Assembly: GCF_947503415.1 (NCBI RefSeq)
Contig: NZ_CANNDS010000006.1
Span: 10,562-74,561, forward strand
DNA from: an uncultured Tateyamaria sp.
GTDB lineage: Bacteria; Pseudomonadota; Alphaproteobacteria; Rhodobacterales; Rhodobacteraceae
Direction of reading: 5' to 3'
Length of the DNA stretch: 64,000 nt
How positions within the stretch are numbered: position 1 is the first letter of the stretch; every line of letters begins with the position of its first letter. Below are positions 2,660 to 49,979 of this stretch, piece by piece. The notes under the pieces are model-generated. The model was given only the letters and a program-made list of their open reading frames with translations. It had not been told where the DNA came from and searched no databases. The position numbers and the translations under genes were made by a program.

Positions 2660-3919
2660 CAGCAGGGTTTCCAGCGCCTTGCCCATCACCTTGGCGCTGT
2701 CGAGCATATCGGTGATGCCCACCCATTCGTCGGGCTTGTGCGCCAGTTCCAATTCACCGGGACCATAGGCAATGCAATTGCGCAGCTTGCCGATACGGTC
2801 GATGTGCTTCTGATCATATGAGCCGGGGGAGGCGACATAGGTCGGCTCCACCCCCAACACGCTTTCAATGGCGGCGTGCACGGTTTCCACAACGGGCGCC
2901 GATCTGTCCGTCATCGACGGCAGCACCACATTCAACTCCCGCATTTCGTATTCAAACCGGTCGCGGGAGGCTTTGAGCCCTTCGAGCAGCTCAACCACTT
3001 CGCCGCGCACCTGCTCCACATTCTCTTCCACGAGAAACCGCCGGTCGATCACGATGCGGCAGCTGTCAGGCACGCAATGGGCGGGCAACCCATCGTAACC
3101 CTCGGCCTGTTCCGGCTGACCGCCGTGGATGGAGTTAATATTCATGGTGGATTGTCGCGCGCCGTCGGGCACCACGGGCATATCCGTATACCGCTTGGAC
3201 ATGGCCGGGTAGAGGTCGCTTTCGAACTTGTCCAGAACCGCCCCCATATGGCGCACGGCGCAATCGCCCAAGAAGGGCATGGAGCCGTGGGCAATCTCAC
3301 CCTTCGTTTCGATCTCTGCCCACCAGCCGCCACGATGGCCAAGGCAAATGCGATCCTTGTTCAGGGGTTCGGGGATGATGACATGCTGGACGCGGTCCGG
3401 GTCAAAGAACCCCTGTTCCGCAAGGTAGGCCACACCGCCATACCCGCCTGACTCTTCATCTGCGGTGGCGCTGATCTCGATCGCGCCCATGAAGTCGGGG
3501 TGTTCTTCGATAAAGGCTTCGGCGGCGATGATTGACGCGGCCAGGCCCCCCTTCATGTCGCAGGCGCCGCGACCATAAACCTTGTCGTCTTCCACGTCGG
3601 CCCCGAACGGATCGCGGGTCCAGCCGTGGCCCACTTCGACCACATCGTGGTGGCTGTTGAAATGCACGCACTCGCCCGGGGATTTCCCCTCGCGCCGCGC
3701 CACGACGTTCCAGCGCGGGTAGGTGTCGCTGTCGCCCGGTGTGCCATGGGCGCGGACCATCTGGACGTCGAAGCCGTGCGCCTTCAGCCGGTCACCGACC
3801 AAAGCGCAGACATCATGATAGTGCCGCCCCGGCGGGTTCAGCGTCGGAATACGGATGAGGTTCTGGGTCAGCGCGATCAGCGCGTCGCGGTGGCCGTCAA
3901 TGCAGGATCCAAGTGTCAT
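2648..3919 (-). CDS. M20 family metallo-hydrolase (ArgE/DapE/ACY1-like deacylase)
   Basis: ORF 2648..4060 trimmed to Met48 (MTLGSCIDGHRDALIALTQNLIRIPTLNPPG). It carries M20 motifs HFNSHHDVV and GRGACDMKGG. Confidence 0.8.
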   Translation of the reverse strand: MTLGSCIDGHRDALIALTQNLIRIPTLNPPGRHYHDVCALVGDRLKAHGFDVQMVRAHGTPGDSDTYPRWNVVARREGKSPGECVHFNSHHDVVEVGHGWTRDPFGADVEDDKVYGRGACDMKGGLAASIIAAEAFIEEHPDFMGAIEISATADEESGGYGGVAYLAEQGFFDPDRVQHVIIPEPLNKDRICLGHRGGWWAEIETKGEIAHGSMPFLGDCAVRHMGAVLDKFESDLYPAMSKRYTDMPVVPDGARQSTMNINSIHGGQPEQAEGYDGLPAHCVPDSCRIVIDRRFLVEENVEQVRGEVVELLEGLKASRDRFEYEMRELNVVLPSMTDRSAPVVETVHAAIESVLGVEPTYVASPGSYDQKHIDRIGKLRNCIAYGPGELELAHKPDEWVGITDMLDSAKVMGKALETLLLPR

Positions 3920-4010
3920 GTGCGCAGTGTTGGCCCCTGCGCGTCCATTGGCAAGGGACGGCCTGCGTGATCCCGACCCTTCGGGAATGATTTTTTGAGC
4001 CAAAGAAGGT

Positions 4011-4886
4011 CTAGAGCTTACCAAGTGGGACCTTGAGCGCCATGTCGCCCGCATCATCACGGGGGATTTCGCCTGCGCGCATGTTCACCTGCAAGGCCGG
4101 TATGATCAGGCTGGGCATGGCAAGTTGCTTGTCGCGTTCGGTGCGGAATTTGATGAAATCCTCGCGCGTTTTGTCACCGCCAACGTGGATATTGTTCGCC
4201 CTCTCTTCGGCCACGGTGGTTTCCCATGCAATGGCCCGACCACCGGGGCCATAATCGTGGCAGATAAACAGGCGCATATCGTCGGGCAGGGACAGCACGC
4301 GCATGATGCTGTCATAAAGTTCGCCCGCATCACCGCCCGGAAAATCAGCGCGGGCCGACCCGCCATCGGGCATGAACAACGTATCGCCGACAAAGGCGGC
4401 ATCACCCATTACATGCACCATGCAAGCCGGCGTGTGGCCGGGTGTGTGCATGGCAAAGCAGGTCATCCCGCCCACGTCGTAGGCATCCCCATCTTCGAAC
4501 AACGCATCGAACTGCGAGCCATCGCGCTGAAATTCTGTCCCCTCGTTGAACACTTTGCCGAAGGTGTCCTGAACTTCCGTGATTTTGGCCCCGATACCGA
4601 TCTTGCCGCCCAAAGCCTGCTGGATGTAAGGCGCGCCGGACAGATGATCGGCGTGGACATGGGTTTCGATGATCCAGTCCAGACGCAGGTCATGCGCACG
4701 GATGTGGGCGATCATCTTGTCAGCCCCGTCGAAGTTCAGCGCCCCAGCGGCATAGTCGATGTCCATCACGGCGTCGATCACGGCACAGGCCGGTCCATCC
4801 GGTTCCTGCACGACATAGGATATCGTGTTGGACCGTTCATCAAAGAATGGCGTGACGGCGGGATGGCAATTCATATCCGGGGTCAT
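4011..4886 (-). CDS. MBL-fold hydrolase, persulfide-dioxygenase-like
   Basis: It has the HVHADH metal motif. It is translationally coupled to the upstream rhodanese gene by a 4-nt overlap. Confidence 0.78.
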   Translation of the reverse strand: MTPDMNCHPAVTPFFDERSNTISYVVQEPDGPACAVIDAVMDIDYAAGALNFDGADKMIAHIRAHDLRLDWIIETHVHADHLSGAPYIQQALGGKIGIGAKITEVQDTFGKVFNEGTEFQRDGSQFDALFEDGDAYDVGGMTCFAMHTPGHTPACMVHVMGDAAFVGDTLFMPDGGSARADFPGGDAGELYDSIMRVLSLPDDMRLFICHDYGPGGRAIAWETTVAEERANNIHVGGDKTREDFIKFRTERDKQLAMPSLIIPALQVNMRAGEIPRDDAGDMALKVPLGKL

Positions 4887-5281
4887 GTCTTGTCCTCCTT
4901 CTCGACCGGGCCGCCCTGCGCTTCCCAGGTTGAAAACCCTTCACGCAGGTGGGCCGCATCAAATCCCATATCCTGCAATGTGGCTACGGTCAGGGCCGAC
5001 CGCCAGCCCGAGGCACAGTGAAACAGAAAGGTCTTGTCAGGCTGCCCAAACACTTCCTTGTAATAGGGACTGTCGGGATCGACCCAAAATTCGATCATAC
5101 CGCGCGGGGCATGTACCGATCCGGGGATGTAGCCGCTGCGCTGCCGTTCGCGGACATCGCGAACGTCCACAATGACGACATCAGGATTCTCTACCATCTT
5201 GATTGCATCAGCCGTTTCGACTTCGCGAATGCGGGCGCGGGCATCAGCGACCATCTGGGCCGCAGTGGTTGTCAGTGCCAT
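4883..5281 (-). CDS. rhodanese-domain sulfurtransferase
   Basis: 132 aa with the active-site loop FHCASGWRSA (CxxxxR). Confidence 0.8.
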   Translation of the reverse strand: MALTTTAAQMVADARARIREVETADAIKMVENPDVVIVDVRDVRERQRSGYIPGSVHAPRGMIEFWVDPDSPYYKEVFGQPDKTFLFHCASGWRSALTVATLQDMGFDAAHLREGFSTWEAQGGPVEKEDKT

Positions 5282-5606
5282 TGGTGTTTCCTTCCCTTTG
5301 GCAGAGTGTGCCAGCGGGTTTGGTTCACGACAAGACAGTGAATGTCATGCAGCCGAAACCATATGCGCACCCGGGTTCAAATATGGCCCACCCGGCGGTC
5401 CACGCCGTTTTCCGCCGGGGTATGGAGTTCCTGACTTGGTGGATTTGCAACTGCAGCATACTTTGTACGTACCAAGACAAGGACATCGCGGTATTTTCCG
5501 CGGTCCTGATATTTGAACGACCCATTTCAAGACTCTCGGGCCCGTTTTTGGGGCTCTGATTATACGCATTTTGACATCAAAATTTGTTTTCTCGCAGGAG
5601 ATTAAA

Positions 5607-6662
5607 ATGGAACGTCACGTTCACATGGCGCGGTTTGCCACCGCGCTGCCCATCCTTTTATTGCTTACCCAACGGGCCAGCGGACACGAAGCGTGGTTGC
5701 TGACGCCAACTGAAATAGAGGACCTGTCCAGCGCCGCAATTCCATCGCTGTTTCGCAGCCAAATATGGCTGGGGCTCGCTGCCGCGATTGCATTTGCGGT
5801 GACCCTCGTCGCACTGCGGCTTGAGCCATTTATCGCAATCGCCGAGAAACGGTTTATTGCACCTTTCTGGAAGAAGTACGGCGACATCGGTCCGCTTGTC
5901 CTTCGCCTTGGGTTGGCGACAATGCTGCTGCTTGGCGCGTCTGGTGGCTTGCCCCGCCACGGGACATCTGCATGGTCCGTATCCACGTTCCTTGTCCCCG
6001 ATATGCAATTGGTCAATGTCACGGGTGCCGACACGCTGATCGTCGTGCAATTTGCACTTGGTGTGTTGCTTGTTGCTGGCCTGTTCACCCGCGCCTGCGG
6101 CATTGCCCTCGTGGCACTTTCATTGGTTGGGCCAGTGATCTTCGGACCTGTGTTCTGGTCCTACAGCCCACATTTCGCAGCGCCGGGTCTTATCCTGATC
6201 GCATTGGGCGCCGGCCGCTTTTCCTGTGATGCTGTTTTCAATCTCGATTCCGCGGACCGGCTTGTGGCCCCTTATCGTCAAATCCTGTGGCGCATGTCGC
6301 ATATCCTGATCGGTGCCGGGTTGATCTATCTGGGGCTGGCGTTCAAGCTGATGCAACCGACCCTGCTGATCGCGATCCTTGAACATGGGGACATGCCGAC
6401 ATTCGGTGTTCCGATGCCGATCATCGCCTTGGTCATGACCGGGGTGGAGATCCTGTGCGGGGCGCTTTTGATCGCCGGACGTCTGGTGCGCCCTGTCGCG
6501 CTTGCGATCCTCGGTGCCATCACATTTCTGGCCATTGTTCTCGGAGAGACACCGCTGTTTCACGCCAATCTGTACGGTGCGCTGTTCTGCATTGTCCTTG
6601 CGGGTCGCTGCATTCCGATCGCGCACGGGGTCACGCGGTTCCAGTCGGTGAGGGCGGTCTGA
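5607..6662 (+). CDS. polytopic membrane protein (possibly DoxX-like)
   Basis: ORF 5571..6662 trimmed to the ATG preceded by AGGAG. It contains many hydrophobic helices. The family assignment is tentative. Confidence 0.5.
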   Translation: MERHVHMARFATALPILLLLTQRASGHEAWLLTPTEIEDLSSAAIPSLFRSQIWLGLAAAIAFAVTLVALRLEPFIAIAEKRFIAPFWKKYGDIGPLVLRLGLATMLLLGASGGLPRHGTSAWSVSTFLVPDMQLVNVTGADTLIVVQFALGVLLVAGLFTRACGIALVALSLVGPVIFGPVFWSYSPHFAAPGLILIALGAGRFSCDAVFNLDSADRLVAPYRQILWRMSHILIGAGLIYLGLAFKLMQPTLLIAILEHGDMPTFGVPMPIIALVMTGVEILCGALLIAGRLVRPVALAILGAITFLAIVLGETPLFHANLYGALFCIVLAGRCIPIAHGVTRFQSVRAV

Positions 6663-7123
6663 TGTTACGCAACCTACTGTCCAGAACAAGCATCGTTCCA
6701 TGTTTCATAGCGCTCTTGCTCGGAACTCTCGTGGTCGCTGCACCCATCGTCAACGCAAAGGGAAGACCGCCACGCACGGTCTTCCTTATCCTGCCAGACG
6801 CCGTCACGCCGCCCACCGTCAACGTGCAGGCCGAAGCCATCGGGGGTGGCCACTACCACCTCTACCTCGAGACAGAGGCGTTCATGTTCACCGAGGTCTG
6901 TGTTGCCGAGGCGGAGGCTGTGCCCATCGGTCATGCGCATATCCACGTGAATGGAAAGAAAGTGGCGTCTGCGTTTTTCCCGGTCATCAACATTGGCCCA
7001 CTGGACGCCGGCACGCATGTCATTGACGTTGTGTTGCGCGGGCAGGATCATCGGCCAATTGTCGGACGCGATGGCCTCGCGCAGGGGCTTGTTCACATCA
7101 CGGTGCCGGTTGGGCCTGCATGA
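6662..7123 (+). CDS. secreted/membrane-anchored hypothetical protein
   Basis: Internal ATG of ORF 6455..7123, overlapping the upstream stop as TGATG. It has an N-terminal hydrophobic signal (MLRNLLSRTSIVPCFIALLLGTLVVAAP) and His-rich segments. Confidence 0.5.
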   Translation: MLRNLLSRTSIVPCFIALLLGTLVVAAPIVNAKGRPPRTVFLILPDAVTPPTVNVQAEAIGGGHYHLYLETEAFMFTEVCVAEAEAVPIGHAHIHVNGKKVASAFFPVINIGPLDAGTHVIDVVLRGQDHRPIVGRDGLAQGLVHITVPVGPA

Positions 7124-7132
7124 AAAACGCTA

Positions 7133-7161
7133 CTGGCGAGTAGTCATCATACGCTCGCCAG
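7133..7161. terminator. hairpin at a convergent gene junction
   Basis: CTGGCGAG-N13-CTCGCCAG lies between the end of the + gene (7123) and the end of glpK (7211). Confidence 0.4.
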
Positions 7162-7210
7162 TACATCAAAGTTTTCTGTATAATCATCGTTATGTGAAGT
7201 AAGCCTACAC

Positions 7211-8679
<1,469 letters not shown>

Positions 8680-35547: not shown

Positions 35548-37206
35548 CTATGCGGCCTCAGCCGCATTGGCATCCGGGAAGATGACGACATTCCGATCCT
35601 CTGCGATCCGGGTACCAGCAGCCAACAAGCGCTCTCGCGCATCACAAGCGACATCCCAAGATGTGTTTGGATCCGAACAGGGCAGCGCAAACCACACATC
35701 CTTGCCGAACACATCCTGCCCGGCCACACGCACCTTGGCACTGTCACGGTCGCCCAGCTGGTCCTGATCCAACTCGTCCAGAATGCCCATGAACGCGTCG
35801 CGCAACAGACCCACATCGGCGTCATGGGCGCACTTCACCTTGATGATGCGCAGCATCTCCGGCTCTTTCATCGTCCAGTTCTCGAAGGCAGTCGACACGA
35901 ACTCCTCCACCGGCACGACAAGCCGTGTGCCATCCCAGTCGCGCAACTGCACATAGGTGAAATTGATACGCTCCACATGGCACAGATAATCGTTGTACAC
36001 GATCCGGTCCCCGATGCGGGCGGACTGGTTCAGGGCAATCTGCAACGACGCCATGATGTTGCCCAGCACCCGCCGCGCGGCAAACCCCAGAACAAGGGTC
36101 AAAGCCCCCGCCGTGCCCAGCAAGGTCAGGCCTAGGTTCTGAAAGATGTTGGTCTGCGACAGGAAGACACCGCCACCCACCAGAATGACAACCACCACAA
36201 AGGCACGGCGCGCAGCCGCCACGCGGGTCGCCGTCGTACGCATGTGCACGTCCTGCTGATTGGTCAGATCAACGTCATCGAACTGGGTCAGCCGGTCCAG
36301 CACGACCTCGACCGCGTTGATGATGAACCATAGGCCCGATGCCAACAGGCCAAGCCACGCCACCGGGGTCAGGATGGTGCTGATCTGGCCCGAAAAGACG
36401 AACACAGATGACCCGATCAAAAGCGCCAGACCGGTCGCAGCCCCCGTTGCCGCGGGCCCGCGCACGGACCGGACGATATCTTTGATGACCCGGCGCTCAA
36501 CCCGGCCTGACACCCAGTTCAGGGTGACCCAGACCCATCGTCCGACCAGTAGGGCAAGCACCATCAGAATGGGCAGACCGATAATCTCCCACCACATGAA
36601 GCCCACTGCCGTCTTCTCGGTCAGTGCGGCAGGCAGATAGGCCTCGAACCCGTTGGGCCCGTACCGCTCGAACAGGGCCGGTATGTTGTCCACGGTCTGG
36701 CGGGAAAACACCCAGACAGGCTCACCCCCGTCCGGTTTCACGCGGGCCAGCCGGATCGCCGCCGGGCGCGCACCCAGATCAAGCGTCCATAGCAACAGCG
36801 ATTTGCGCGGCTCGCCCGCCATCGCCTGATCCGAGGACGCCTGAGCATCAATTCCATCCGGTCGGTCCCGCACCAGATCCCAGTCAATCACCGCCTTGCG
36901 GCTGATCACCGTATCGAGCGCGCGCGCCAGTTCCGCGCCGCGCACCGCTTGTTCCTCTTCAGGGATGTTCGACAGGTCCAGCAGATGGGCCGCATACCCC
37001 CACGCATCACGCTCAGCAAAGAAAAGCAGGCTTTCGATGGCGGCGCGCGGGGTGTCTTGGGCGATGATGTCACCGGGCGCATCCAACCCGTCATTCAACC
37101 CTTCCACACAATACCAGCGCGTCGTTTCACACGCCTCGGTTTGCGCAAAGGCGACAGTCGCAAGGCTAGACAACATCACGAGGATGACGGAAATTCGTTT
37201 GATCAT
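35548..37206 (-). CDS. mechanosensitive ion channel family protein (MscS-like)
   Basis: 552 aa with a signal peptide, a periplasmic domain, TM helices and an MscS beta-domain (IGDRIVYNDYLCHVERINFTYVQLRDWDGTRLVVP). Confidence 0.85.
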   Translation of the reverse strand: MIKRISVILVMLSSLATVAFAQTEACETTRWYCVEGLNDGLDAPGDIIAQDTPRAAIESLLFFAERDAWGYAAHLLDLSNIPEEEQAVRGAELARALDTVISRKAVIDWDLVRDRPDGIDAQASSDQAMAGEPRKSLLLWTLDLGARPAAIRLARVKPDGGEPVWVFSRQTVDNIPALFERYGPNGFEAYLPAALTEKTAVGFMWWEIIGLPILMVLALLVGRWVWVTLNWVSGRVERRVIKDIVRSVRGPAATGAATGLALLIGSSVFVFSGQISTILTPVAWLGLLASGLWFIINAVEVVLDRLTQFDDVDLTNQQDVHMRTTATRVAAARRAFVVVVILVGGGVFLSQTNIFQNLGLTLLGTAGALTLVLGFAARRVLGNIMASLQIALNQSARIGDRIVYNDYLCHVERINFTYVQLRDWDGTRLVVPVEEFVSTAFENWTMKEPEMLRIIKVKCAHDADVGLLRDAFMGILDELDQDQLGDRDSAKVRVAGQDVFGKDVWFALPCSDPNTSWDVACDARERLLAAGTRIAEDRNVVIFPDANAAEAA

Positions 37207-37744: not shown

Positions 37745-37992
37745 GCGCCCATGCACCGTTGAATCAGGATCACCCAAAACACCATGATGCCCGACACCAG
37801 CCCCAGCCCGCTCCAAAACACCCAAGGGCGCAACACCACGCCCGGCACAGATCGGCCAATCATCACCCGCAATGTTTGCCCCACATCCAGCCCATGCCGC
37901 TGCTTGATCACCAGCCCCAACAGCACCGCCCCGATCCAGAACACCATCAACGGCCCCTGCCCCGTTACTTCCGCGCAGTCTCCAAAACTCAT
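37741..37992 (-). CDS. small membrane protein (83 aa), hypothetical
   Basis: MSFGDCAEVTGQGPLMVFWIGAVLLGLVI...GLGLVSGIMVFWVIL. It has two hydrophobic helices and ATGA-type overlaps with both the initiator gene (37989) and dinB (37744). Confidence 0.45.
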   Translation of the reverse strand: MSFGDCAEVTGQGPLMVFWIGAVLLGLVIKQRHGLDVGQTLRVMIGRSVPGVVLRPWVFWSGLGLVSGIMVFWVILIQRCMGA

Positions 37993-38684
37993 GTCACGAT
38001 CCGCACTTCGCTCACCTCCCCGTCCACCTCCCGGCACGCCGCCAAAACCCGCCGCTCCAGATGCGTCTGTACATAGGCGCCGTGAAACCGTGACGGCGCG
38101 CGCAGGGTCAACCGCCCCCCTGCCCGCTCGACCCGCTCAAGGCCCGCAATCCACGACGCATAAAGCCCCGCATCCTCGCCATGCAAAATCGCCTGGGCCA
38201 AGGACCACTCCGTCCCCTTCGACACATCCGGCGCGGTGACAGACCCCTTCACCGGCAAAGGCACCACCTTCTGTGGCTCCTCGTCATTGGCCCCCATACG
38301 CAACTCGAAATCCGGCCCTACGGCAGCCCAATACGCCTCCGTATCCAGCAACACGCGCTCCAGGTCCAACCCATGCTCAGACACCCGCCCCCGCGCACCC
38401 TGCCGCTTCACCACCAACCACCCGCGCGCGCGCAGCAGCGCCATCTCCCGTTTCACCGTGCGCTCATCGACAGACCAAAGCCGCGCAATCTCGCGCTGAC
38501 CCACGGCCAATTCATCCCGCGCCCAATTGTAGCGCGCCGTGATCAGCGTCATCAGCCGCAGCACCCGCCGCTGCTCATGCTTGCCCTGCGCCAACGCGTA
38601 CGCACCCAAGGCCGTCAGAATATCGTATTTGCGCGCAGACGCGCCCCGGCCCACCGGCCTCAGCGTTTGCATCCCTGCCCTCAT
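37989..38684 (-). CDS. plasmid replication initiator, DnaA-like/RepC-like (winged-helix N-terminus, DnaA domain-I-like C-terminus)
   Basis: 231 aa. The N-terminus YDILTALGAYALA...GQREIARLWSVDERTVKREMALLRARGWLVVKR is wHTH-like. The C-terminus WSLAQAILHGEDAGLYASWIAGLERVERAGGRLTLRAPSRFHGAYVQTHLERRVLAACREV follows the DnaA N-terminal domain pattern (W..L....Y..WI..L....L.L..P..F....V). It is divergent from parAB with a DnaA box in between. An alternative start is Met5 (38672). Confidence 0.72.
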   Translation of the reverse strand: MRAGMQTLRPVGRGASARKYDILTALGAYALAQGKHEQRRVLRLMTLITARYNWARDELAVGQREIARLWSVDERTVKREMALLRARGWLVVKRQGARGRVSEHGLDLERVLLDTEAYWAAVGPDFELRMGANDEEPQKVVPLPVKGSVTAPDVSKGTEWSLAQAILHGEDAGLYASWIAGLERVERAGGRLTLRAPSRFHGAYVQTHLERRVLAACREVDGEVSEVRIVT

Positions 38685-38773
38685 TTGTCTGAATGGTCCG
38701 GGCTGCCCCGAACATCACCTGCCAACGGTTGGGTTTCCCCGCGGTTCTGGCCGCTTTTCCGTCTCTGCCTCTG

Positions 38774-38802
38774 ATTTGCGTCCCAAGTCCCGATTCTGTC
38801 AA
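38774..38802 (-). promoter_or_regulatory. sigma70-like promoter candidate for the initiator gene
   Basis: The minus strand reads TTGACA-N17-GCAAAT. The DnaA box lies 7 nt upstream of the -35. Confidence 0.45.
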
Positions 38803-38809
38803 GGGGGCA

Positions 38810-38818
38810 TGTGGATAA
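38810..38818. promoter_or_regulatory. perfect consensus DnaA box (TTATCCACA / TGTGGATAA)
   Basis: catGTGGATAAcc; the exact 9-mer is TGTGGATAA. Confidence 0.7.
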
Positions 38819-38946
38819 CCTGTCTGACCCAAACCCAAATCAAAAGAAAATCAAGGTTATACGGTATTGGGGGACATACTGACTGTCCCCTATTCCGAGC
38901 CTTTTGTCACCCATTCTGTTGTGGAGGACACAAAACTGTCCCCCCA
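38819..38946. other. candidate oriV core: AT-rich tract plus everted half-site pairs
   Basis: An AT-rich tract (acccaaacccaaatcaaaagaaaatcaaggttatacggtatt) sits in otherwise GC-rich DNA. It is followed by GGGGACA-N7-TGTCCCC (38870-38890) and GGAGGACA-N6-TGTCCCC (38923-38943), which are the two halves of the 39-43.7 kb palindrome in everted order. Confidence 0.5.
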
Positions 38947-39028
38947 AATCTGGGCAGTAAACATAGGGAACGGGCACAGCACAGAATCACAACGTTTCCC
39001 CCGGCCTGCCTGAGCCAAAGCGCAATCT

Positions 39029-39042
39029 GTCCCCGCGGGGAC
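39029..39042. repeat. parS-like palindrome GTCCCCGCGGGGAC (exact)
   Basis: cTGTCCCCGCGGGGACAa, upstream of the parA promoter candidate. Confidence 0.8.
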
Positions 39043-39057
39043 AACCATATTCCCCTT

Positions 39058-39086
39058 TTGCTTTTTCCGCAAAATCAGCGTAAATC
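39058..39086 (+). promoter_or_regulatory. sigma70-like promoter candidate for parAB
   Basis: TTGCTT-N17-TAAATC, bracketed by palindromes at 39029 and at 39107/39133. Confidence 0.45.
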
Positions 39087-39106
39087 TGGAAATGAGCAGA
39101 ATTAGC

Positions 39107-39120
39107 GTCCCCGCGGGGAC
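39107..39120. repeat. parS-like palindrome (exact)
   Basis: CGTCCCCGCGGGGACG, in the parA 5' leader. Confidence 0.8.
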
Positions 39121-39132
39121 GAAAAACAACCT

Positions 39133-39146
39133 GTCCCCGCGGGGAC
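39133..39146. repeat. parS-like palindrome (exact)
   Basis: TGTCCCCGCGGGGACA, 26 bp from the previous copy and 18 nt before the parA ATG. Confidence 0.8.
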
Positions 39147-39163
39147 AAACCAACAGGCAGCGC

Positions 39164-40468
39164 ATGTTCACGCACACAGACCTCGCCCAACTTCAGGCGC
39201 AATCCCTCAAAATGCAGGGGTTCATCCGCCAGCAAACCTACTCGCCCGAGAGCGAAAAAACGCTTCGTCGCTTCTCAAGCTGGGAGGTGGCGGAACTCAT
39301 CTTTAAAGCCAACCAATCCACCCTGCGCGGCCGACTCGCCGCCGACCCGTCCCTGCCCCAGGGCATCGTGGAAGAAGACGGCCGCCAACGCTGGTACACG
39401 CTGGATGAGATCAACGAACTGCGTCGCCGGATCAAGGTGAACCGCAAGTCGCTCATGCCCTACCGCCCGGCGAACAAGCGCGCCATCCGCGCCGCCATCG
39501 CCAACTTCAAAGGGGGGGCGGGCAAATCCACAACAGCGCTCCACTTCGCCCACGCCGCCGCTCTCGACGGCTACCGCGTGCTCTGCGTCGACTTCGACCC
39601 GCAGGCCACGCTCAGCCATTCCATGGGCTTGTCGGACGTGGCCGAAGAATACACTGTCTGGGGCATCATGGCGCGCGATCTGGGGCACGAGACTGACCGC
39701 ATGAACTCCGCCCTGCGCGGTGCGGAATCCGGCACCGCCCTGCCCCACCGCAAACTGCCCGCAGCAATCACGGACATGGGCCTCAACGACCTGCGCGCGT
39801 CCGACTTCATCAAGCCCACGAACTGGCCCACAATCGACATCGTGCCCAGTTGCGCCAACGCCGCCTTCGTCGAGTTTGCCTCCGCCCAATATCGGCACAT
39901 CAACCCCGAATGGTCGTTCTTTGCCGCCGTCTCGCGCTTCCTCGACCAGATCGCGCCCGACACCTACGACCTCATCCTTTTCGACTGCCCGCCCGCCATC
40001 GGCTACCAGTCCATGAACGCGGTCTTTGCCGCCGACGTGCTCTACATTCCCTCCGGCCCCGGCTATTGGGAATACGATTCAACCACGTCCTTTATCGGCC
40101 AGCTGTCCGAAGCACTCGAAGATCTGTCCCGCTTCAACGGCCTTGTCCCCGCGGGGACAATGACCTTGCCCAAGTCCTTCCTCGACCTCCGCTTCCTGCT
40201 CACGCGGTTCGAGCCGGGCAATGAACTGCACCGCGCGATGCAGGGCGCGTTCCAGAAAGTGTTCGGCGACCGCGTCTGCGAACACCCGATCGAAATGACC
40301 CGCGCGGTCGAGCAATCCGGGCGATTCCTGAGCAGTATCTACGAAATAGATTACCGGGACATGACCCGCGAAACCTGGCGCCGCGCGCGCGCCTCGTTCG
40401 ACCGCGCTTACGAAGAATTCAAAACGAACCTGGGAACAGCCTGGGACCAACTGGAGGATGAGGCATGA
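39164..40468 (+). CDS. parA: partition ATPase ParA (RepA-type, with N-terminal extension)
   Basis: ORF 39092..40468 trimmed to MFTHTDLAQLQ so that the leader palindromes are not translated. It has the deviant Walker A FKGGAGKST. Confidence 0.9.
   Translation: MFTHTDLAQLQAQSLKMQGFIRQQTYSPESEKTLRRFSSWEVAELIFKANQSTLRGRLAADPSLPQGIVEEDGRQRWYTLDEINELRRRIKVNRKSLMPYRPANKRAIRAAIANFKGGAGKSTTALHFAHAAALDGYRVLCVDFDPQATLSHSMGLSDVAEEYTVWGIMARDLGHETDRMNSALRGAESGTALPHRKLPAAITDMGLNDLRASDFIKPTNWPTIDIVPSCANAAFVEFASAQYRHINPEWSFFAAVSRFLDQIAPDTYDLILFDCPPAIGYQSMNAVFAADVLYIPSGPGYWEYDSTTSFIGQLSEALEDLSRFNGLVPAGTMTLPKSFLDLRFLLTRFEPGNELHRAMQGAFQKVFGDRVCEHPIEMTRAVEQSGRFLSSIYEIDYRDMTRETWRRARASFDRAYEEFKTNLGTAWDQLEDEA
40145..40158. 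repeat. parS-like palindrome (exact, 18-bp TTGTCCCCGCGGGGACAA) inside parA
   Basis: Read as GLVPAGTM in ParA. Confidence 0.8.
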
Positions 40469-41520
40469 GCAAACGCCGCGTATTCGACATCGACTTCGAC
40501 CTGGACGCAGGCAGCGCGCCCGACGCAGATCAGACCCCTGCCCCGGAAACCCGCCGTGGGCCCATGGCCGCAGCCATTTCCGAGAACGCCGATGCGCTCA
40601 CTGAACGTCACTCGGCAGAGGCTGAAATCCGCGCTGAAAATGACCGTCTCGCCCACGAATATGTGTCTCTAAAAAGGGATGGAGCCATCGTTGCCCGCGT
40701 TCCCCTCGGGGACGTGGCGATGCAGAAATTGACCCGCGACCGCAGCACAAACCGCGATCCGGACCTTGAAGAGCTCAAGACCTCGATCCGCGACCTTGGC
40801 CTGTCCAACCCGATCCAGGTCGAAGACACCGGCGACGGCTACGAATTGATCCAAGGTTTCCGCCGCCTCAGCGCGTACAAGTCCTTGTTCGAGGAGACCG
40901 GCGACGAAAAATACGCCACCATCCCCGCGGTGCTTGTCGCCAAGGGCGAAGCGCTCGAAAAGCTCTACCGCCGCATGGTCGACGAAAACATGGTCCGGCG
41001 GGATATTTCCTTTGCCGAAATGGGCCAGCTCGCCTCCAGCTATGCCCGCCAGATGGACCTCGAATTGAACGACGCGATCGCCGTTCTCTTTGCCTCTGCC
41101 GGACGGCAAAAGCGTCACTACATAGGCAGTTTTAGTCTCTTGATGGACAAATTGGGCCACCGCCTTCAATACCCCGAAGCGATCCCGCGCGCCCTCGGTC
41201 TCAAGCTGATCAAAGCGCTCGAAGAGCAGCCCCGCGCCGCGCAACACCTGACCGCCCTTCTGGACCACCAGAAACCCACGGATGCGGTCGCGGAACTCGC
41301 GGTCCTGAACAAGGTTGTCGCACCCAAGCCGGTGGGCGAACAGACCGCGCCGTCCACGTCCTCAAAGACCACCATCAAGTTGAACCGCAAGGCGGGTGCC
41401 GCGAAGGTCATCGGCTCAAAGGGCAAGATCGAATTGCAGATGAACCGCGACTTCGGGTCCATCGATCCGCGCAAGCTCGAAGCAGCGGTGCGCGCCCTTC
41501 TCGACCAGCTTGATCTGTGA
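40465..41520 (+). CDS. parB: partition protein ParB (RepB-type centromere-binding protein)
   Basis: 351 aa with the ParB box IQVEDTGDGYELIQGFRRLSAYK. It has an ATGA overlap with parA. Confidence 0.88.
   Translation: MSKRRVFDIDFDLDAGSAPDADQTPAPETRRGPMAAAISENADALTERHSAEAEIRAENDRLAHEYVSLKRDGAIVARVPLGDVAMQKLTRDRSTNRDPDLEELKTSIRDLGLSNPIQVEDTGDGYELIQGFRRLSAYKSLFEETGDEKYATIPAVLVAKGEALEKLYRRMVDENMVRRDISFAEMGQLASSYARQMDLELNDAIAVLFASAGRQKRHYIGSFSLLMDKLGHRLQYPEAIPRALGLKLIKALEEQPRAAQHLTALLDHQKPTDAVAELAVLNKVVAPKPVGEQTAPSTSSKTTIKLNRKAGAAKVIGSKGKIELQMNRDFGSIDPRKLEAAVRALLDQLDL
40699..40713. repeat. degenerate palindrome GTTCCCCTCGGGGAC inside parB
   Basis: Imperfect relative of the 14-mer, read as RVPLGDV. 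Confidence 0.45.
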
Positions 41521-41523
41521 TCT

Positions 41524-41537
41524 GTCCCCGCGGGGAC
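41524..41537. repeat. parS-like palindrome (exact)
   Basis: It starts 4 nt after the parB stop. Confidence 0.8.
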
Positions 41538-41542
41538 AATCG

Positions 41543-41573
41543 AAAAAGCCCGCCAACTTGGCGGGCTTTTTTT
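41543..41573. terminator. bidirectional rho-independent terminator (parB / bchO)
   Basis: AAAAAGCCCGCC-aactt-GGCGGGCTTTTTTT, with an A tract on one side and a T tract on the other. Confidence 0.85.
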
Positions 41574-41588
41574 GTGGCGTTGTGCAGT

Positions 41589-41602
41589 GTCCCCGCGGGG
41601 AC
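41589..41602. repeat. parS-like palindrome (exact)
   Basis: It lies between the terminator and the bchO stop codon. Confidence 0.8.
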
Positions 41603-41610
41603 AGATTTCG

Positions 41611-42483
41611 CTAGCTCGAAGATTTTCGAATAATCTGACGGATCAGCGCGACGGTCTCAGCGGGCCGTTCTTCATGCGCCAAATGCCCCAGACCTGCGAG
41701 ACGATGCACCGTCGCATTCGGCATTCGCGCGGCCGCCTTTTCCGAGACGTCGGGCGGGACAGTCGTGTCCCTTTCCCCGACCAGAAAGTGAACCTCTGAC
41801 GGATGCGTCGGCAAGCGGGCCAAGAGCGGATCAAGCTTCCATTGCGCCATCATCAACAGCGTCCCGTCCACGTGGTTGCGATCCCCTACAAGCCGTCGGT
41901 ACAGGGCCAGGCCCGGCGCATCCAGATCGGAGCCTGTCGAGCCGATCAATGCCTTGATCCGCTCAGGATTCGAAGACGCGCCCGAGAATAGCGACGCCGT
42001 GAATGGCACGGCTGCCAAAGCTTTCGCCATCACCGGGAACAGCAATCCCGCAAGCCCCTTGAACTGTGCCAAAGCAGCGTTGATTCCAATGACCAGCGGC
42101 GCTTGTCCCCGCGGGGACAGATCGCTTTCCGCCAGTCTCAGGGCGACGGCAGCCCCTGCAGAATGGCCGATGATTACAGCCGGTGCCCATCCTTCTTGGG
42201 CGCACAGGTGTGCGATGTCCTCTGCCATGGCGTCCAGTCCGCAGCGGTGACGTGCGCCAAGTTGCGTGAACCCTTGCCCCGGCAGGTCCAGCGCAACCAC
42301 GTGATGATCCTCTGCGAGCGTCGGCATGAGGTCGCGGTACGAGTGTGTCGACCCCCCGGCCCCGTGCAGCATCAGAATGGTCTGTCCTGCGCCTTTTTCC
42401 TGAATATGCCAGCGGTGCACGGGCCCTTGTCCCCGCCGGGACAAATCGGAATTGGGCCACGTTTCGATCTGGGACCAGTCCAT
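41611..42483 (-). CDS. bchO: alpha/beta hydrolase, Mg-chelatase accessory protein BchO
   Basis: 290 aa with HGAGGSTHS and the nucleophile elbow GHSAG. Synteny is bchI-D-O. Confidence 0.85.
   Translation of the reverse strand: MDWSQIETWPNSDLSRRGQGPVHRWHIQEKGAGQTILMLHGAGGSTHSYRDLMPTLAEDHHVVALDLPGQGFTQLGARHRCGLDAMAEDIAHLCAQEGWAPAVIIGHSAGAAVALRLAESDLSPRGQAPLVIGINAALAQFKGLAGLLFPVMAKALAAVPFTASLFSGASSNPERIKALIGSTGSDLDAPGLALYRRLVGDRNHVDGTLLMMAQWKLDPLLARLPTHPSEVHFLVGERDTTVPPDVSEKAAARMPNATVHRLAGLGHLAHEERPAETVALIRQIIRKSSS
42105..42118. repeat. parS-like palindrome (exact) inside bchO
   Basis: Read as DLSPRGQA in BchO. Confidence 0.8.
42429..42442. repeat. one-mismatch palindrome GTCCCCGCCGGGAC inside bchO
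   Basis: Read as DLSRRGQG near the BchO N-terminus. Confidence 0.5.
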
Positions 42484-42486
42484 CCG

Positions 42487-44130
42487 TCAGCTGTCCAACG
42501 CGGCAGTCACGGCGCCGCTGAGCCTTTGGGCATCCGCACGCGGGAGCGCGACGTAAGGCGCATCCAGAGTGCGGCTCAGGTCTTGCAATGTGGTCTGCGG
42601 GCGGTTCGACATGTCGATCACCAGTGCCGCCGTGCCTGTGGCGCGCAGGGCGCTTGCCATTGCCACGGAGTCTTCTGCGGCCTGGCCCCGATTTGCGCTG
42701 CCGTCGAGGGCCACGTTGGCGCGCCCATCCGTGACCAGAATGACCGTTGGGGTCAGGCCTTTGCCCTTTGTCTGTTGCGCGAGCAGGAGGGCGTGTTGCA
42801 GGCCCGAGGCGAGGGGCGTGCCGCCGCCGCCGGGGAGAGCTGACAGGCGGCGTTTGGTTTGCACGAGTGAGCGGGTCGGAGGCAGGAGGGTTTCTGCCTC
42901 GGCGCCGCGGAAAGAGATCAGGGCCACGTGGTCGCGGCTGGCATAGGCGTCGGCGAGCAGGAGTTCGATGGCGCCCTTGGCTTCGCCGAGGCGGGAAACG
43001 GCGGCGGAGCCTGATGCGTCGACAGTGAAAATCAACAGGCGATCGGATTGTTCGGCGTAGCGTTTCAGGCGGATGTCGGATGGACGGATGAGAAGGCCGC
43101 TGCGGTTCGGTTGTTGTTCGCGGCGCAAGGGTTGCCAGGGGGCTGCGGCGCGCAAGGTGGCGATCAGGTCGATCCGGGAGGTGCCGTCGAGCCGGCCGGG
43201 ACGCGAGGGCAGGGGGCGGCCGCGGCGGTTGCTGGTGCGCTTTTGACCCGCGCCTGTCCCGCCGGATTTTCGGGTTGTCCCCGCGGGGACAAGTCCGTTC
43301 AGCAGGTCGGGGGGGAGCAGGGATTTGACGGCTTCGACAAGCATATCGGCGTCGGGGAATGCGTCGTTTTCGTCGTTGTCCCCGCGGGGACAGTCGTCGG
43401 ACTGGGGTGGGGGAGGGGGGGTGTCTGCCTCTTCCAAATCCTCGGGAATGACAGTGGCGCGGTGGGGGTAGACGAGCGTCGCAGCGACTTCGAGGTCGGC
43501 GTCGGTGAGGTGGTTGCGACCCATGAGGTTTGCATGGGCGCGTGCGGTGCGGAGGGCGAGGGTCGGGGCGCGGAGGGATGTGATGCCGAAACGGGTTGCA
43601 AGCATGGTAAGTTGCAGGATGGCGTCAGCTGTTTTTACCTCTGACCCCGCGGGGACAGATTGGTTTGTCCCCGCGGGGACACACGGTTTTCGGCCCTCGG
43701 GTTCGATGTGGAAAGCGCAGCGATCAGCGAGGGGGTCGGGGGTGCGTTCGTCTGCCTCGATCCCTTCATCAAAGAGCAAAAAGCCCTGTGTTAGAGAATG
43801 ATCTGCCAGTTGAGAGAGCTTGGCGGCGAGGGCCGGGGGGCAGCGTTCGGCCATGGGAATGAGGGTGATAGTGGGGCTGTAGAAAAATGATTTATTTTCA
43901 ATGACTTGTGCGGATGCCAGGGTTGCGCTGAGGTCTATGCCGCCGAAGAGTTGTTCGTCGGATATGATGATAGGCAGTTTGCGGATGGGCAGGGCAGGGG
44001 TGAAGCCCGCCAGAAGCGCGTCACGGTCCGGACTTGCGCGCATGCGGATGACAGCACCGCCGAGACCCTGCGGGTCAAGCGCCAGCAATTTCAGGGCGAG
44101 GGTCGCGTTGTACCAGTTTTCTGCGGTCAT
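42487..44130 (-). CDS. bchD: magnesium chelatase subunit D
   Basis: 547 aa with an AAA-like N-terminus, a Pro/acidic linker (PPPPPQSDD...) and a C-terminal vWA domain (LLIFTVDASGS). Confidence 0.93.
   Translation of the reverse strand: MTAENWYNATLALKLLALDPQGLGGAVIRMRASPDRDALLAGFTPALPIRKLPIIISDEQLFGGIDLSATLASAQVIENKSFFYSPTITLIPMAERCPPALAAKLSQLADHSLTQGFLLFDEGIEADERTPDPLADRCAFHIEPEGRKPCVPAGTNQSVPAGSEVKTADAILQLTMLATRFGITSLRAPTLALRTARAHANLMGRNHLTDADLEVAATLVYPHRATVIPEDLEEADTPPPPPQSDDCPRGDNDENDAFPDADMLVEAVKSLLPPDLLNGLVPAGTTRKSGGTGAGQKRTSNRRGRPLPSRPGRLDGTSRIDLIATLRAAAPWQPLRREQQPNRSGLLIRPSDIRLKRYAEQSDRLLIFTVDASGSAAVSRLGEAKGAIELLLADAYASRDHVALISFRGAEAETLLPPTRSLVQTKRRLSALPGGGGTPLASGLQHALLLAQQTKGKGLTPTVILVTDGRANVALDGSANRGQAAEDSVAMASALRATGTAALVIDMSNRPQTTLQDLSRTLDAPYVALPRADAQRLSGAVTAALDS
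43277..43290. repeat. parS-like palindrome (exact, 18 bp) inside bchD
   Basis: Read as GLVPAGTT. Confidence 0.8.
43378..43391. repeat. parS-like palindrome (exact) inside the bchD linker
   Basis: Read as DDCPRGDND. Confidence 0.8.
43643..43656. repeat. one-mismatch palindrome GACCCCGCGGGGAC inside bchD
   Basis: Read as SVPAGSE, 24 bp from the next copy. Confidence 0.55.
43667..43680. repeat. parS-like palindrome (exact) inside bchD
   Basis: Read as CVPAGTN. Confidence 0.8.
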
Positions 44131-49213: not shown

Positions 49214-49350
49214 GCACAGGCGGTGGTAAAAGACAGCTTTGCGACTGAATACCTGTTGTTTGCCTGTGCGCCGAATTGCGCGTTCGCCTCGTTAAGGAAA
49301 TCTTGAATTTGCCGCGCAAGATGGGCATGTCTGGGACTGAGAGGTGACCA

Positions 49351-49539
49351 ATGGCCAAGAGAGTTCAAAAATCTGCCGCCGCTTCTGCTCATACGCGTGT
49401 GCAAAGCAAACAAGCGACGAAGTCTGCTTCTGGCGTTGTTGTCACTCAGCGCAGTGCCAAAACCGGAAGGTTTGTTGAAGGTGTAAAGGCTATCTCGCGC
49501 CGGGATCGGGCGGGCCTGATCAAACTGGCTGACCGATAG
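49351..49539 (+). CDS. putative antitoxin partner of Doc (atypical, Lys/Ser/Ala-rich)
   Basis: 62 aa. Its stop overlaps the Doc GTG start (TAGTG). It contains RSAKTGRFV and a C-terminal ISRRDRAGLIKLADR. It has no recognisable Phd/YefM or AbrB fold by eye. Confidence 0.5.
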   Translation: MAKRVQKSAAASAHTRVQSKQATKSASGVVVTQRSAKTGRFVEGVKAISRRDRAGLIKLADR

Positions 49540-49979
49540 TGGCAGATCACTTCCGTGTCACGTTTGAGGATGTGATGACGGCTCATGACAACGCATTGCA
49601 AAATGGCGGCGGTGTTCCTGGCATAAACAACGAAGACTTGATCCGCAGTGCGCTGGGACGGCCATATCACGAATACGCGGGACACGTTTTTTACCCCTCT
49701 GTTACAGACAAAGCCGGATGCCTTTTGCATGGTTTCCTGACTAATCATGGGTTCAAGGATGCGAATAAGCGCACGGCGTGGATCGTGTGCAACGCGTTTC
49801 TTTATACAGAGATCTACCTGCTGATCCTGCCAGAGGACTACCCCTGGTATGACAAGCTGGCACAGATGGTGCATGAGCATTGGGACGTGCAGCGCGTAAT
49901 CTCGTGGGTGGAGCGTTATGCCAAGGGATACGAGAGCCACGAGGCCATGATGGACGACGTAGAAATCTTCTTTGGCTAG
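49539..49979 (+). CDS. doc: Doc-family (Fic-fold) toxin
   Basis: 146 aa with an exact Doc motif, H-G-F-K-D-A-N-K-R (HxFx[DN][AG]NKR). The local GC is visibly lower than in the flanks. Confidence 0.85.
   Translation: MADHFRVTFEDVMTAHDNALQNGGGVPGINNEDLIRSALGRPYHEYAGHVFYPSVTDKAGCLLHGFLTNHGFKDANKRTAWIVCNAFLYTEIYLLILPEDYPWYDKLAQMVHEHWDVQRVISWVERYAKGYESHEAMMDDVEIFFG

Follow-up and report, generated by a model that had tools for sequence, protein, structure and literature searches.

A stretch of 64,000 nucleotides from a contig of an uncultured Tateyamaria sp. (NZ_CANNDS010000006.1), called the window below and numbered from its first letter, carries a photosynthesis gene cluster (PGC) of the roseobacter kind, and inside this cluster lie genes for a putative replication initiator (rep) and two partition proteins (parA and parB). 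Comparison at the sequence level confirms that this interval is a complete, intact DnaA-like I replication-and-partition unit between hemA and bchO. With a probability of about 90%, it belongs to a DnaA-like I plasmid or chromid of ∼80 kb in a Tateyamaria-like roseobacter and serves the replication and partition of that replicon from the canonical position within the PGC. The arrangement as such is already known, and the window is one more Tateyamaria-type member that brings no new principle. What is added here is a sharper map of the module, which turns out to be larger than reported, as its palindromes reach bchO and bchD; priority for this observation is not claimed. Plasmid-borne PGCs matter since the whole phototrophy package can be inherited and exchanged as one replicon, and such exchange is the published explanation for the patchy occurrence of aerobic anoxygenic phototrophy in Rhodobacteraceae.

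The rep gene (37989..38672, minus strand) and the parA-parB operon (39164-41520, plus strand) diverge from a control region of 491 bp. The first-pass annotation of this DNA, made from its letters alone, had proposed a minus-strand initiator of 231 aa; the corresponding open reading frame (37989-38684) is present, but the gene probably starts at 38672 and encodes 227 aa, because homologues have 225–227 residues and their invariant methionine is residue 5 of the longer frame. The ParA with the motif KGGAGKST and the ParB with GFRRLSAYK that it had named are there as well. The parA gene (39164..40468, plus strand) encodes a type Ia ATPase of 434 aa. Its frame is open from 39092, and we moved the start from there to 39164 because homologues, including the annotated gene of Tateyamaria omphalii, begin at that methionine; two palindromes in the apparent N-terminus therefore lie upstream of the gene. 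The parB gene (40465..41520, plus strand) overlaps the end of parA and encodes 351 aa of the ParB/RepB family. No repC is found downstream of parB, which is followed instead by a hairpin and the convergent bchO, so the earlier remark that this is not a repABC operon stands.

The window is collinear with pDOK1-4-3, the circular 77.6-kb plasmid of T. omphalii DOK1-4 (NZ_CP019315.1), at ∼83–86% DNA identity. About 60 kb of gene order is in common, including the succession hemA-cytochrome c-opgG-dinB-rep/parAB-bchO-bchD-bchI, and Rep, ParA and ParB of the two replicons are 92%, 98% and 91% identical. One plasmid record matches part of 20000-44000 of the window at ≥99% identity, probably over a short piece.

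A family sample with one genome per species comprised 80 loci with initiators 65–93% identical to the window Rep; across them ParA, with 80–99% identity to the window protein, is much better conserved than either Rep or ParB (44–91%). All taxon-named loci belong to Rhodobacterales, in line with the host range by which DnaA-like I replicons are defined, and several others come from metagenome bins named to phylum or class only. Among the plasmid matches listed, those covering the whole module are likewise all from Rhodobacterales, and partial matches to Rhizobium and Sinorhizobium plasmids probably concern parA only. The divergent rep/parAB layout without repC is seen in at least 74 of the 80 loci, and most of the others end at a contig edge. 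In 45 of them the order is rep-parA-parB-bchO-bchD, mostly on contigs of 75–140 kb or on closed plasmids; the Tateyamaria contigs have 75–140 kb, and one closed Tateyamaria plasmid has 81.6 kb.

The module of the window occupies the conserved central position in the PGC, between the hemA end of bchF...hemA and bchO-bchD-bchI. Whether this arrangement was among the plasmid-borne PGCs known from roseobacters had been left open by the first-pass annotation, and the answer is that it is published. Brinkmann et al. 2018 described the DnaA-like I module at this position in five plasmids, including pRLO149_94, and Liu et al. 2019 (PMC6739100) in twelve. The latter list three Tateyamaria PGC plasmids, of 77.6, 79.9 (syn59) and 139 kb (ANG-S1), and class the Tateyamaria replicons as chromid-like. 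The replicon type itself goes back to Petersen et al. 2011 and is used in PMC6052148, PMC6739100 and PMC3910554. The plasmid pRLO149_94, from Roseobacter litoralis Och 149, was the first photosynthesis plasmid of the DnaA-like I type to be described; its order parAB-bchO-bchD is that of the window, and the 16-bp palindrome occurs, as here, upstream of parA and within parA, bchO and bchD. It differs in having six palindromes (≤1 mismatch) against twelve, in its accessory genes next to rep, and in its BchD, which is 63.5% identical.

Rep of the window is 92–93% identical to the copies of T. omphalii DOK1-4, Tateyamaria sp. syn59 and ANG-S1, 93% being the identity of the closest database initiator, and 67% identical to the copy on a 126-kb scaffold of L. 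aquimarina, which its size suggests to be pAqui_F126, a plasmid that PMC3910554 names as DnaA-like I. Identity falls to 39% for the distant DnaA-like module of Sulfitobacter sp. S190. An exact-sequence look-up with Rep (both 231 and 227 aa) and ParB found no identical protein in the collections searched. The relatedness of Rep and ParAB to copies called DnaA-like I by Liu et al. 2019 would place the module in compatibility group I.

Both the length of Rep and its weak homology to DnaA agree with the replicase of such plasmids (about 225 aa). The Pfam family DnaA_N matches residues 174-218 with an E-value of 2.5e-4, below the gathering score, and it matches 26 of 26 aligned homologues, the best at 2.9e-6. 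An AlphaFold model built from 36 sequences (mean pLDDT 84) has three parts: a helical and winged-helix domain at the N-terminus, a C-terminal alpha/beta domain and, between them, a disordered linker. When this model was compared with the PDB by Foldseek, DnaA domain I came out on top (4tps, TMt 0.79–0.81, root-mean-square deviation 1.3 Å over 73 columns), followed by winged helices of the MarR/ArsR type that cover the N-terminal half. DnaA domain I recruits helicase or DnaA, and the model suggests a similar division of labour for Rep, which may bind DNA via its winged helix and recruit helicase or DnaA via the domain-I-like module. The claim that the layout matches the DnaA-like replicons of Rhodobacterales is thus borne out by the DnaA_N match, the predicted domain I fold, the relatives in this order, which sit mostly on plasmid-sized contigs or closed plasmids, and synteny.

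It could be argued that the 227-aa protein is merely a winged-helix regulator of parAB and that replication depends on an element we did not recognise. No NCBIfam model matches Rep, searching PDB sequences with a profile from the Rep alignment gave only a spurious match to flagellin, the annotation pipeline PGAP often names the protein hypothetical, and the DnaA_N match of this protein stays below the gathering score. We nevertheless find this hardly credible. Papers on Rhodobacterales plasmids name this family as the replicase of the DnaA-like type, Rep is the sole candidate initiator on pDOK1-4-3, whose annotation lists no other Rep, and the fold of DnaA domain I is a high-confidence prediction. 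The function of the DnaA-like replicase family was also, reportedly, tested experimentally by Petersen et al. in 2011.

The partition proteins are those of a type Ia ParABS system. ParA matches Pfam AAA_31 and CbiA and, below the NCBIfam cut-offs, RepA (TIGR03453, 3e-63) and SopA (6e-25); an N-terminal extension of ∼110 aa precedes the deviant Walker A motif KGGAGKST. ParB_N is matched by ParB with 26.6 bits against a cut-off of 26.3, the arginine patch GFRRLSA lies inside the match, and TIGR00180 and TIGR03454 match below their cut-offs. SopABC of plasmid F likewise has a ParA of type Ia that is extended at its N-terminus. RepA and RepB of repABC replicons resemble the window ParA and ParB (TIGR03453 and TIGR03454 are the best NCBIfam models, albeit below cut-off), and repABC operons also have short GC-rich palindromes within or near them, presumed to be partition and incompatibility sites. 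The window module differs from them in the absence of repC, in its unrelated, divergently oriented initiator of 227 aa, and in its palindrome, which is not that of the repABC groups compared.

State of the replicon

Synteny, GC skew and gene integrity together argue for an extrachromosomal state of the window, as far as this can be read from sequence. All three genes of the module are intact, and purifying selection acts on them: compared with those of pDOK1-4-3, rep, parA and parB have no internal stops and dN/dS values of 0.11, 0.04 and 0.06. In the window, the cumulative GC skew is lowest at ∼42–42.5 kb and highest at 2.5 kb. For pDOK1-4-3 the minimum falls at 34.5 kb, a short way beyond parB, and the maximum at 76 kb, on nearly the opposite side of the circle. 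The sign of the skew is independent of gene orientation, being negative for the plus-strand bchF...hemA and positive for the plus-strand bchCXYZ-puf. This is consistent with a replicon of ∼80 kb that replicates in both directions from the module or its vicinity, and together with the purifying selection it lends indirect support to autonomous replication by the module. Genes of the window outside the PGC (panBC, glpKD, and those for an M20 peptidase, a protein of metallo-beta-lactamase fold and a rhodanese) are of accessory type and mostly shared with pDOK1-4-3.

Alternatively, the window could be chromosomal and the module an integrated ex-plasmid replicon, silent or dispensable, left from re-integration of the PGC. 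Re-integrations of this kind were proposed by Brinkmann et al., for instance in R. denitrificans, and a case that may resemble them is found in Roseobacter insulae YSTF-M11, where module and PGC share a contig of 1,074,209 bp (NZ_JAHXDN010000002.1) with rep-parAB-bchO-bchD at 975450-996127 and six perfect palindromes. An integration into the chromosome with the module kept, a replicon of very large size or an assembly error could each account for this, and the existence of such a locus on a 1.07-Mb contig weakens our case insofar as the presence of the module alone is no proof of a small plasmid. For the window, we still consider a chromosomal location very unlikely. It corresponds to 73111 to the end and then 1-56175 of pDOK1-4-3, so that both flanks of the PGC match the closed plasmid and the match runs across the start of its record. 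A tRNA scan and an Rfam search at gathering thresholds found nothing in the whole window, and the scanned open reading frames, like the annotation of pDOK1-4-3, contain no core chromosomal genes. Strong purifying selection and the upkeep of 10 perfect and 2 near-perfect palindromes speak against a silent remnant, the skew flips at the module and back ∼40 kb away as expected for a replicon of ∼80 kb, and Brinkmann et al. state that the module is lost from chromosomal PGCs. The negative Rfam search also means that no antisense or ctRNA-type regulator was recognised.

The first-pass annotation went on to suggest that phototrophy would be transferable here as one unit. This is weaker than it was put: the syntenic pDOK1-4-3 is typed as non-mobilizable and its annotation has no conjugation, relaxase or other transfer gene, and for the window itself only a few open reading frames were scanned.

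Control region and candidate origin

The divergent control region (38673..39163) has a GC content of 0.54 compared with 0.62 for the window, and we infer that it contains the replication origin (candidate oriV). Its conservation was assessed in an intergenic alignment of 77 related loci. Half-site repeats of the palindrome described below fill 38863..38950, with a column conservation of 0.8–0.99 and a near-invariant block at 38863-38897 that includes the everted pair GGGGACA-N7-TGTCCCC (38871-38891). The repeats TTTTGTCACCCAT (38903-38915) and CTGTCCCCCCAAAT (38936-38949) are near-invariant too. Half-site positions recur in most loci with spacings of ∼14, 21 and 32 nt, and these repeats are candidate binding sites of the initiator, or half-sites for ParB.

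An AT-rich tract at 38829-38868 (GC 0.33, within the lowest 0.1% of 40-mers of the window) is a candidate DNA-unwinding element. It starts 11 bp past a single, perfect DnaA box TTATCCACA (38810-38818, minus strand), which is unique within the 64 kb (∼0.19 copies expected in the window and 0.0015 in this intergenic region). On the rep side, the conserved blocks TGATTTGCGTCCC and GATTCTGTCAAGG (38772..38804, minus strand; column conservation 0.8–0.99) come with a TTGACA at 38802-38797 (minus strand), by eye a candidate –35 box of rep. On the other side, the plus-strand block 39045..39110 is near-invariant and contains TTTTGC...GCAAAA, TTGCTT-17 nt-TAAATC and AGAATTAGCGTCC; it is a candidate promoter, operator and leader of parAB, the promoter being read by eye.

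In the scheme that we propose, Rep would bind the TGTCCCC/GTCACCC repeats of the 491-bp region via its N-terminal winged helix. The adjacent AT-rich tract would then open, possibly helped in this clade by host DnaA at the single DnaA box, the C-terminal DnaA-domain-I-like domain of Rep would recruit host helicase or DnaA, and replication would proceed in both directions. Segregation would rely on the type Ia ParA, on ParB and on the palindrome array as parS.

Several observations speak against parts of this scheme. Relative to the intergenic region, the skew minimum is displaced by 3–3.5 kb to the right, which could mean an origin nearer to the parB-bchO junction or simply that skew is too coarse a guide. 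A scan of 37.7–41.8 kb with the sigma-70 consensus found no promoter. The DnaA box was tried as a feature of the family and rejected, as a perfect copy is present in only 8 of the 77 intergenic regions and missing from the other 69; the carriers are the window, the six closest Tateyamaria loci, where it has the matching position, and one further locus (L030). Because a perfect copy is essentially limited to the closest Tateyamaria relatives, the box is, as far as these alignments go, an accessory, clade-specific element and not a defining one.

All three elements that the first-pass annotation had placed between the two arms, DnaA box, AT-rich tract and palindromes, are present there, though the palindromes are not confined to this region and span 39029-43680. 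The hairpin that follows parB (AAAAAGCCCGCCAA/TTGGCGGGCTTTTT, 41543-41571) has a perfect stem of 14 bp with A and T runs at its flanks, is enclosed by two palindromes (41523..41603) and, judging by this structure, resembles a terminator working in both directions, for parB and for the bchO that converges on it. Terminator hits of the consensus scan were at background level, and this hairpin was missed by it.

A palindrome array that continues into bchO and bchD

The palindrome GTCCCCGCGGGGAC, usually in the form of the 16-mer TGTCCCCGCGGGGACA, has 12 copies in the window (≤1 mismatch), where 0.03 would be expected. All of them lie within the 4.65 kb of 39029-43680, and the remaining 59 kb have none. 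Three are upstream of parA (39028-39043, 39107-39120 and 39132-39147; tabulated starts 39029, 39107 and 39133), and the proximal copy, just 5′ of parA, is found in most related loci. One lies inside parA (40144-40159, start 40145), where it encodes LVPAGT, and two flank the hairpin between parB and bchO (41523-41538 and 41588-41603, starts 41524 and 41589). Two more are inside bchO (41611..42483, minus strand; TIGR03056 BchO, E-value 4e-101), a perfect one at 42104-42119 (start 42105) that encodes LSPRGQ and one with 1 mismatch at 42429-42442. The last four are in bchD (42487..44130, minus strand), in its variable linker, at 43276-43291, 43377-43392, 43643-43656 (1 mismatch) and 43666-43681 (starts 43277, 43378, 43643 and 43667). 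The array thus runs ∼2.2 kb beyond parB, and the right end of the module, earlier drawn at 41603, moves to ∼43.7 kb.

A genome-wide repeat such as a REP or HIP-like element was considered and rejected, as neither the other 59 kb of the window nor the remaining 73 kb of pDOK1-4-3 contains a copy; on that plasmid all 12 copies sit within 4.7 kb of the 77.6-kb circle. A protein-level repeat (VPAGT, SPRGQ, CPRGD) was rejected as well: these are one DNA palindrome read in three frames, and selection therefore acts on the DNA and not on the peptide.

The 80 loci contain 384 copies in 1.42 Mb. All but one of these, 383, are on the parAB side and no more than 5.5 kb from the rep start; there are none 5.5–10 kb out and a single one on the rep side. 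In almost all loci, no other repeated palindrome is as common as the core TCCCCGCGGGGA, and the palindrome is invariant. Two loci with complete parAB (L074 and L076) have no repeated palindrome copy. In T. omphalii, 12 of 13 scored positions, among them a degenerate site near 40700, are matched at ≤2 mismatches, and 43643 is unmatched.

Conservation of single sites was scored on 33 PGC plasmids aligned from parA to bchD. The palindrome at 40145 in parA is kept in 30 of the 33 loci (conservation 0.97 inside, 0.78 in the flanks), that at 42105 in bchO also in 30 (0.98 and 0.62), and those in bchD at 43277 in 29 (0.92 and 0.67) and at 43667 in 26 (0.90 and 0.52). Compared with PGCs that lack the module, the site at 42105 coincides with an insertion of 3–4 residues in BchO, and the site at 43277 arose by substitution.

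By analogy with known partition systems, we infer that the palindromes are parS and form a sopC-like centromere that is partly built into bchO and bchD. This is suggested by the polarity of the array, by its location around parB and beyond, by perfect dyad symmetry and by tolerance of coding sequence. It is further suggested by a partial match to the canonical chromosomal parS TGTTTCACGTGAAACA, with which we take the palindrome to share TGT..C....G..ACA, and by the literature treatment of analogous repABC palindromes. The copies 5′ of parA would also permit autoregulation.

In plasmid F, the 16-bp inverted repeats of sopC form an array that lies 3′ of the B gene. A non-PGC Leisingera plasmid comes close to this layout, with seven copies of our palindrome in an unannotated 600 bp after parB, spaced by 57–120 bp (six of them 77–120 bp). 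Chromosomal parS sites also occur inside coding sequences. The window array differs from both SopABC and chromosomal ParABS in that part of it lies within the cargo genes bchO and bchD, where its sites keep their positions from genus to genus, and binding by its ParB is putative.

The palindromes might instead be sites for an initiator dimer, an operator together with a copy-number and incompatibility array that titrates or handcuffs the initiator, with the centromere elsewhere. P1 incA iterons titrate and handcuff their initiator in this way, and the winged helix of other Rep proteins binds inverted repeats as a dimer. A winged helix is predicted in Rep too, the origin repeats share the half-site TGTCCCC/GGGGACA in everted orientation, which leaves room for initiator binding to the palindromes and weighs against the parS reading, and ParB drops to 44% identity across the family over which the palindrome does not change. 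On balance, we regard this alternative as unlikely, if clearly less so than the others discussed above. From its beginning at parA the array extends across parAB and past parB, and it is confined to the parAB side but for a single copy in the sample of relatives. Perfect 16-bp palindromes that are scattered across kilobases, coding sequences included, are what one typically sees with parS and ParB, the TGT..C....G..ACA pattern presumably shared with canonical parS points the same way, and papers on Rhodobacterales plasmids read the comparable 14-nt repABC palindromes as a partition anchor bound by RepA/RepB.

Among PGC plasmids of other kinds, the palindrome was not found in S. guttiformis pSD118 (RepB-III), in Sulfitobacter sp. 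S190 with its distant DnaA-like module or in Roseinatronobacter, which has no adjacent module. The S190 plasmid has a single 24-bp palindrome of its own after parB, CAGGGTTACCCGCGGGTAACCCTG (L086, 8506-8529), and pSD118 has its own palindromes next to parB, ATTGCCCTCGGGCAATT and ATTGCCCATGGGCAATT (L085, 38-54 and 2804-2820). Different palindromes by replicon type at the same PGC position are consistent with module-specific centromeres. The S190 comparison does not separate binding by ParB from binding by Rep, because both proteins diverge together there (34% and 39% identity).

A further step would be that the centromere of PGC plasmids was rebuilt inside the cargo genes bchO and bchD, and is not a separate non-coding array as in the Leisingera relatives. 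Four palindromes are kept in 26–30 of 33 plasmids and read in different frames, and one was made by the insertion of 3–4 codons in BchO; on these grounds we would give the idea even odds. If it is true, plasmid segregation is interlocked with the Mg-chelatase operon, which could explain the fixed position of the module in the PGC through many transfers, and ParB loading could influence the expression of bchO, bchD and bchI.

Neither palindromes nor parS nor an embedded centromere is mentioned in the two open-access papers on these plasmids, the papers of 2011 (Petersen et al., Mol Biol Evol) and 2012 (Environ Microbiol) lying outside this check; a full-text literature search with the palindrome sequence retrieved unrelated papers only. 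The embedded centromere is thus offered as a modest, testable lead. Constructs or typing schemes that end at parB would lose half of the presumed centromere. Judged on related loci only, TGTCCCCGCGGGGACA is a simple marker for most DnaA-like I replicons in drafts and metagenomes.

Segments that differ from pDOK1-4-3

The upstream neighbours of the module are a DinB-family gene and a gene for an MscS-like protein. The latter (35548-37206, minus strand, 552 aa; segment 35461-37240, beside dinB) is found where pDOK1-4-3 has a hypothetical gene of 834 bp. It has no tblastn match in the 80 loci and looks like a strain-specific replacement beside the replicon. A segment with a Fic gene (49280-49975) is inverted relative to 41363-42063 of pDOK1-4-3, with 75% identity, and no inverted repeats were found to flank it. 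Two segments of the window, 2660-4013 with the M20 peptidase and 5281-7211, are absent from pDOK1-4-3. The second has open reading frames without a Pfam match and a lower GC content of 0.56–0.59, and at its borders lie two 40-mers that rank among the most AT-rich of the window (5569-5608 and 7162-7201).

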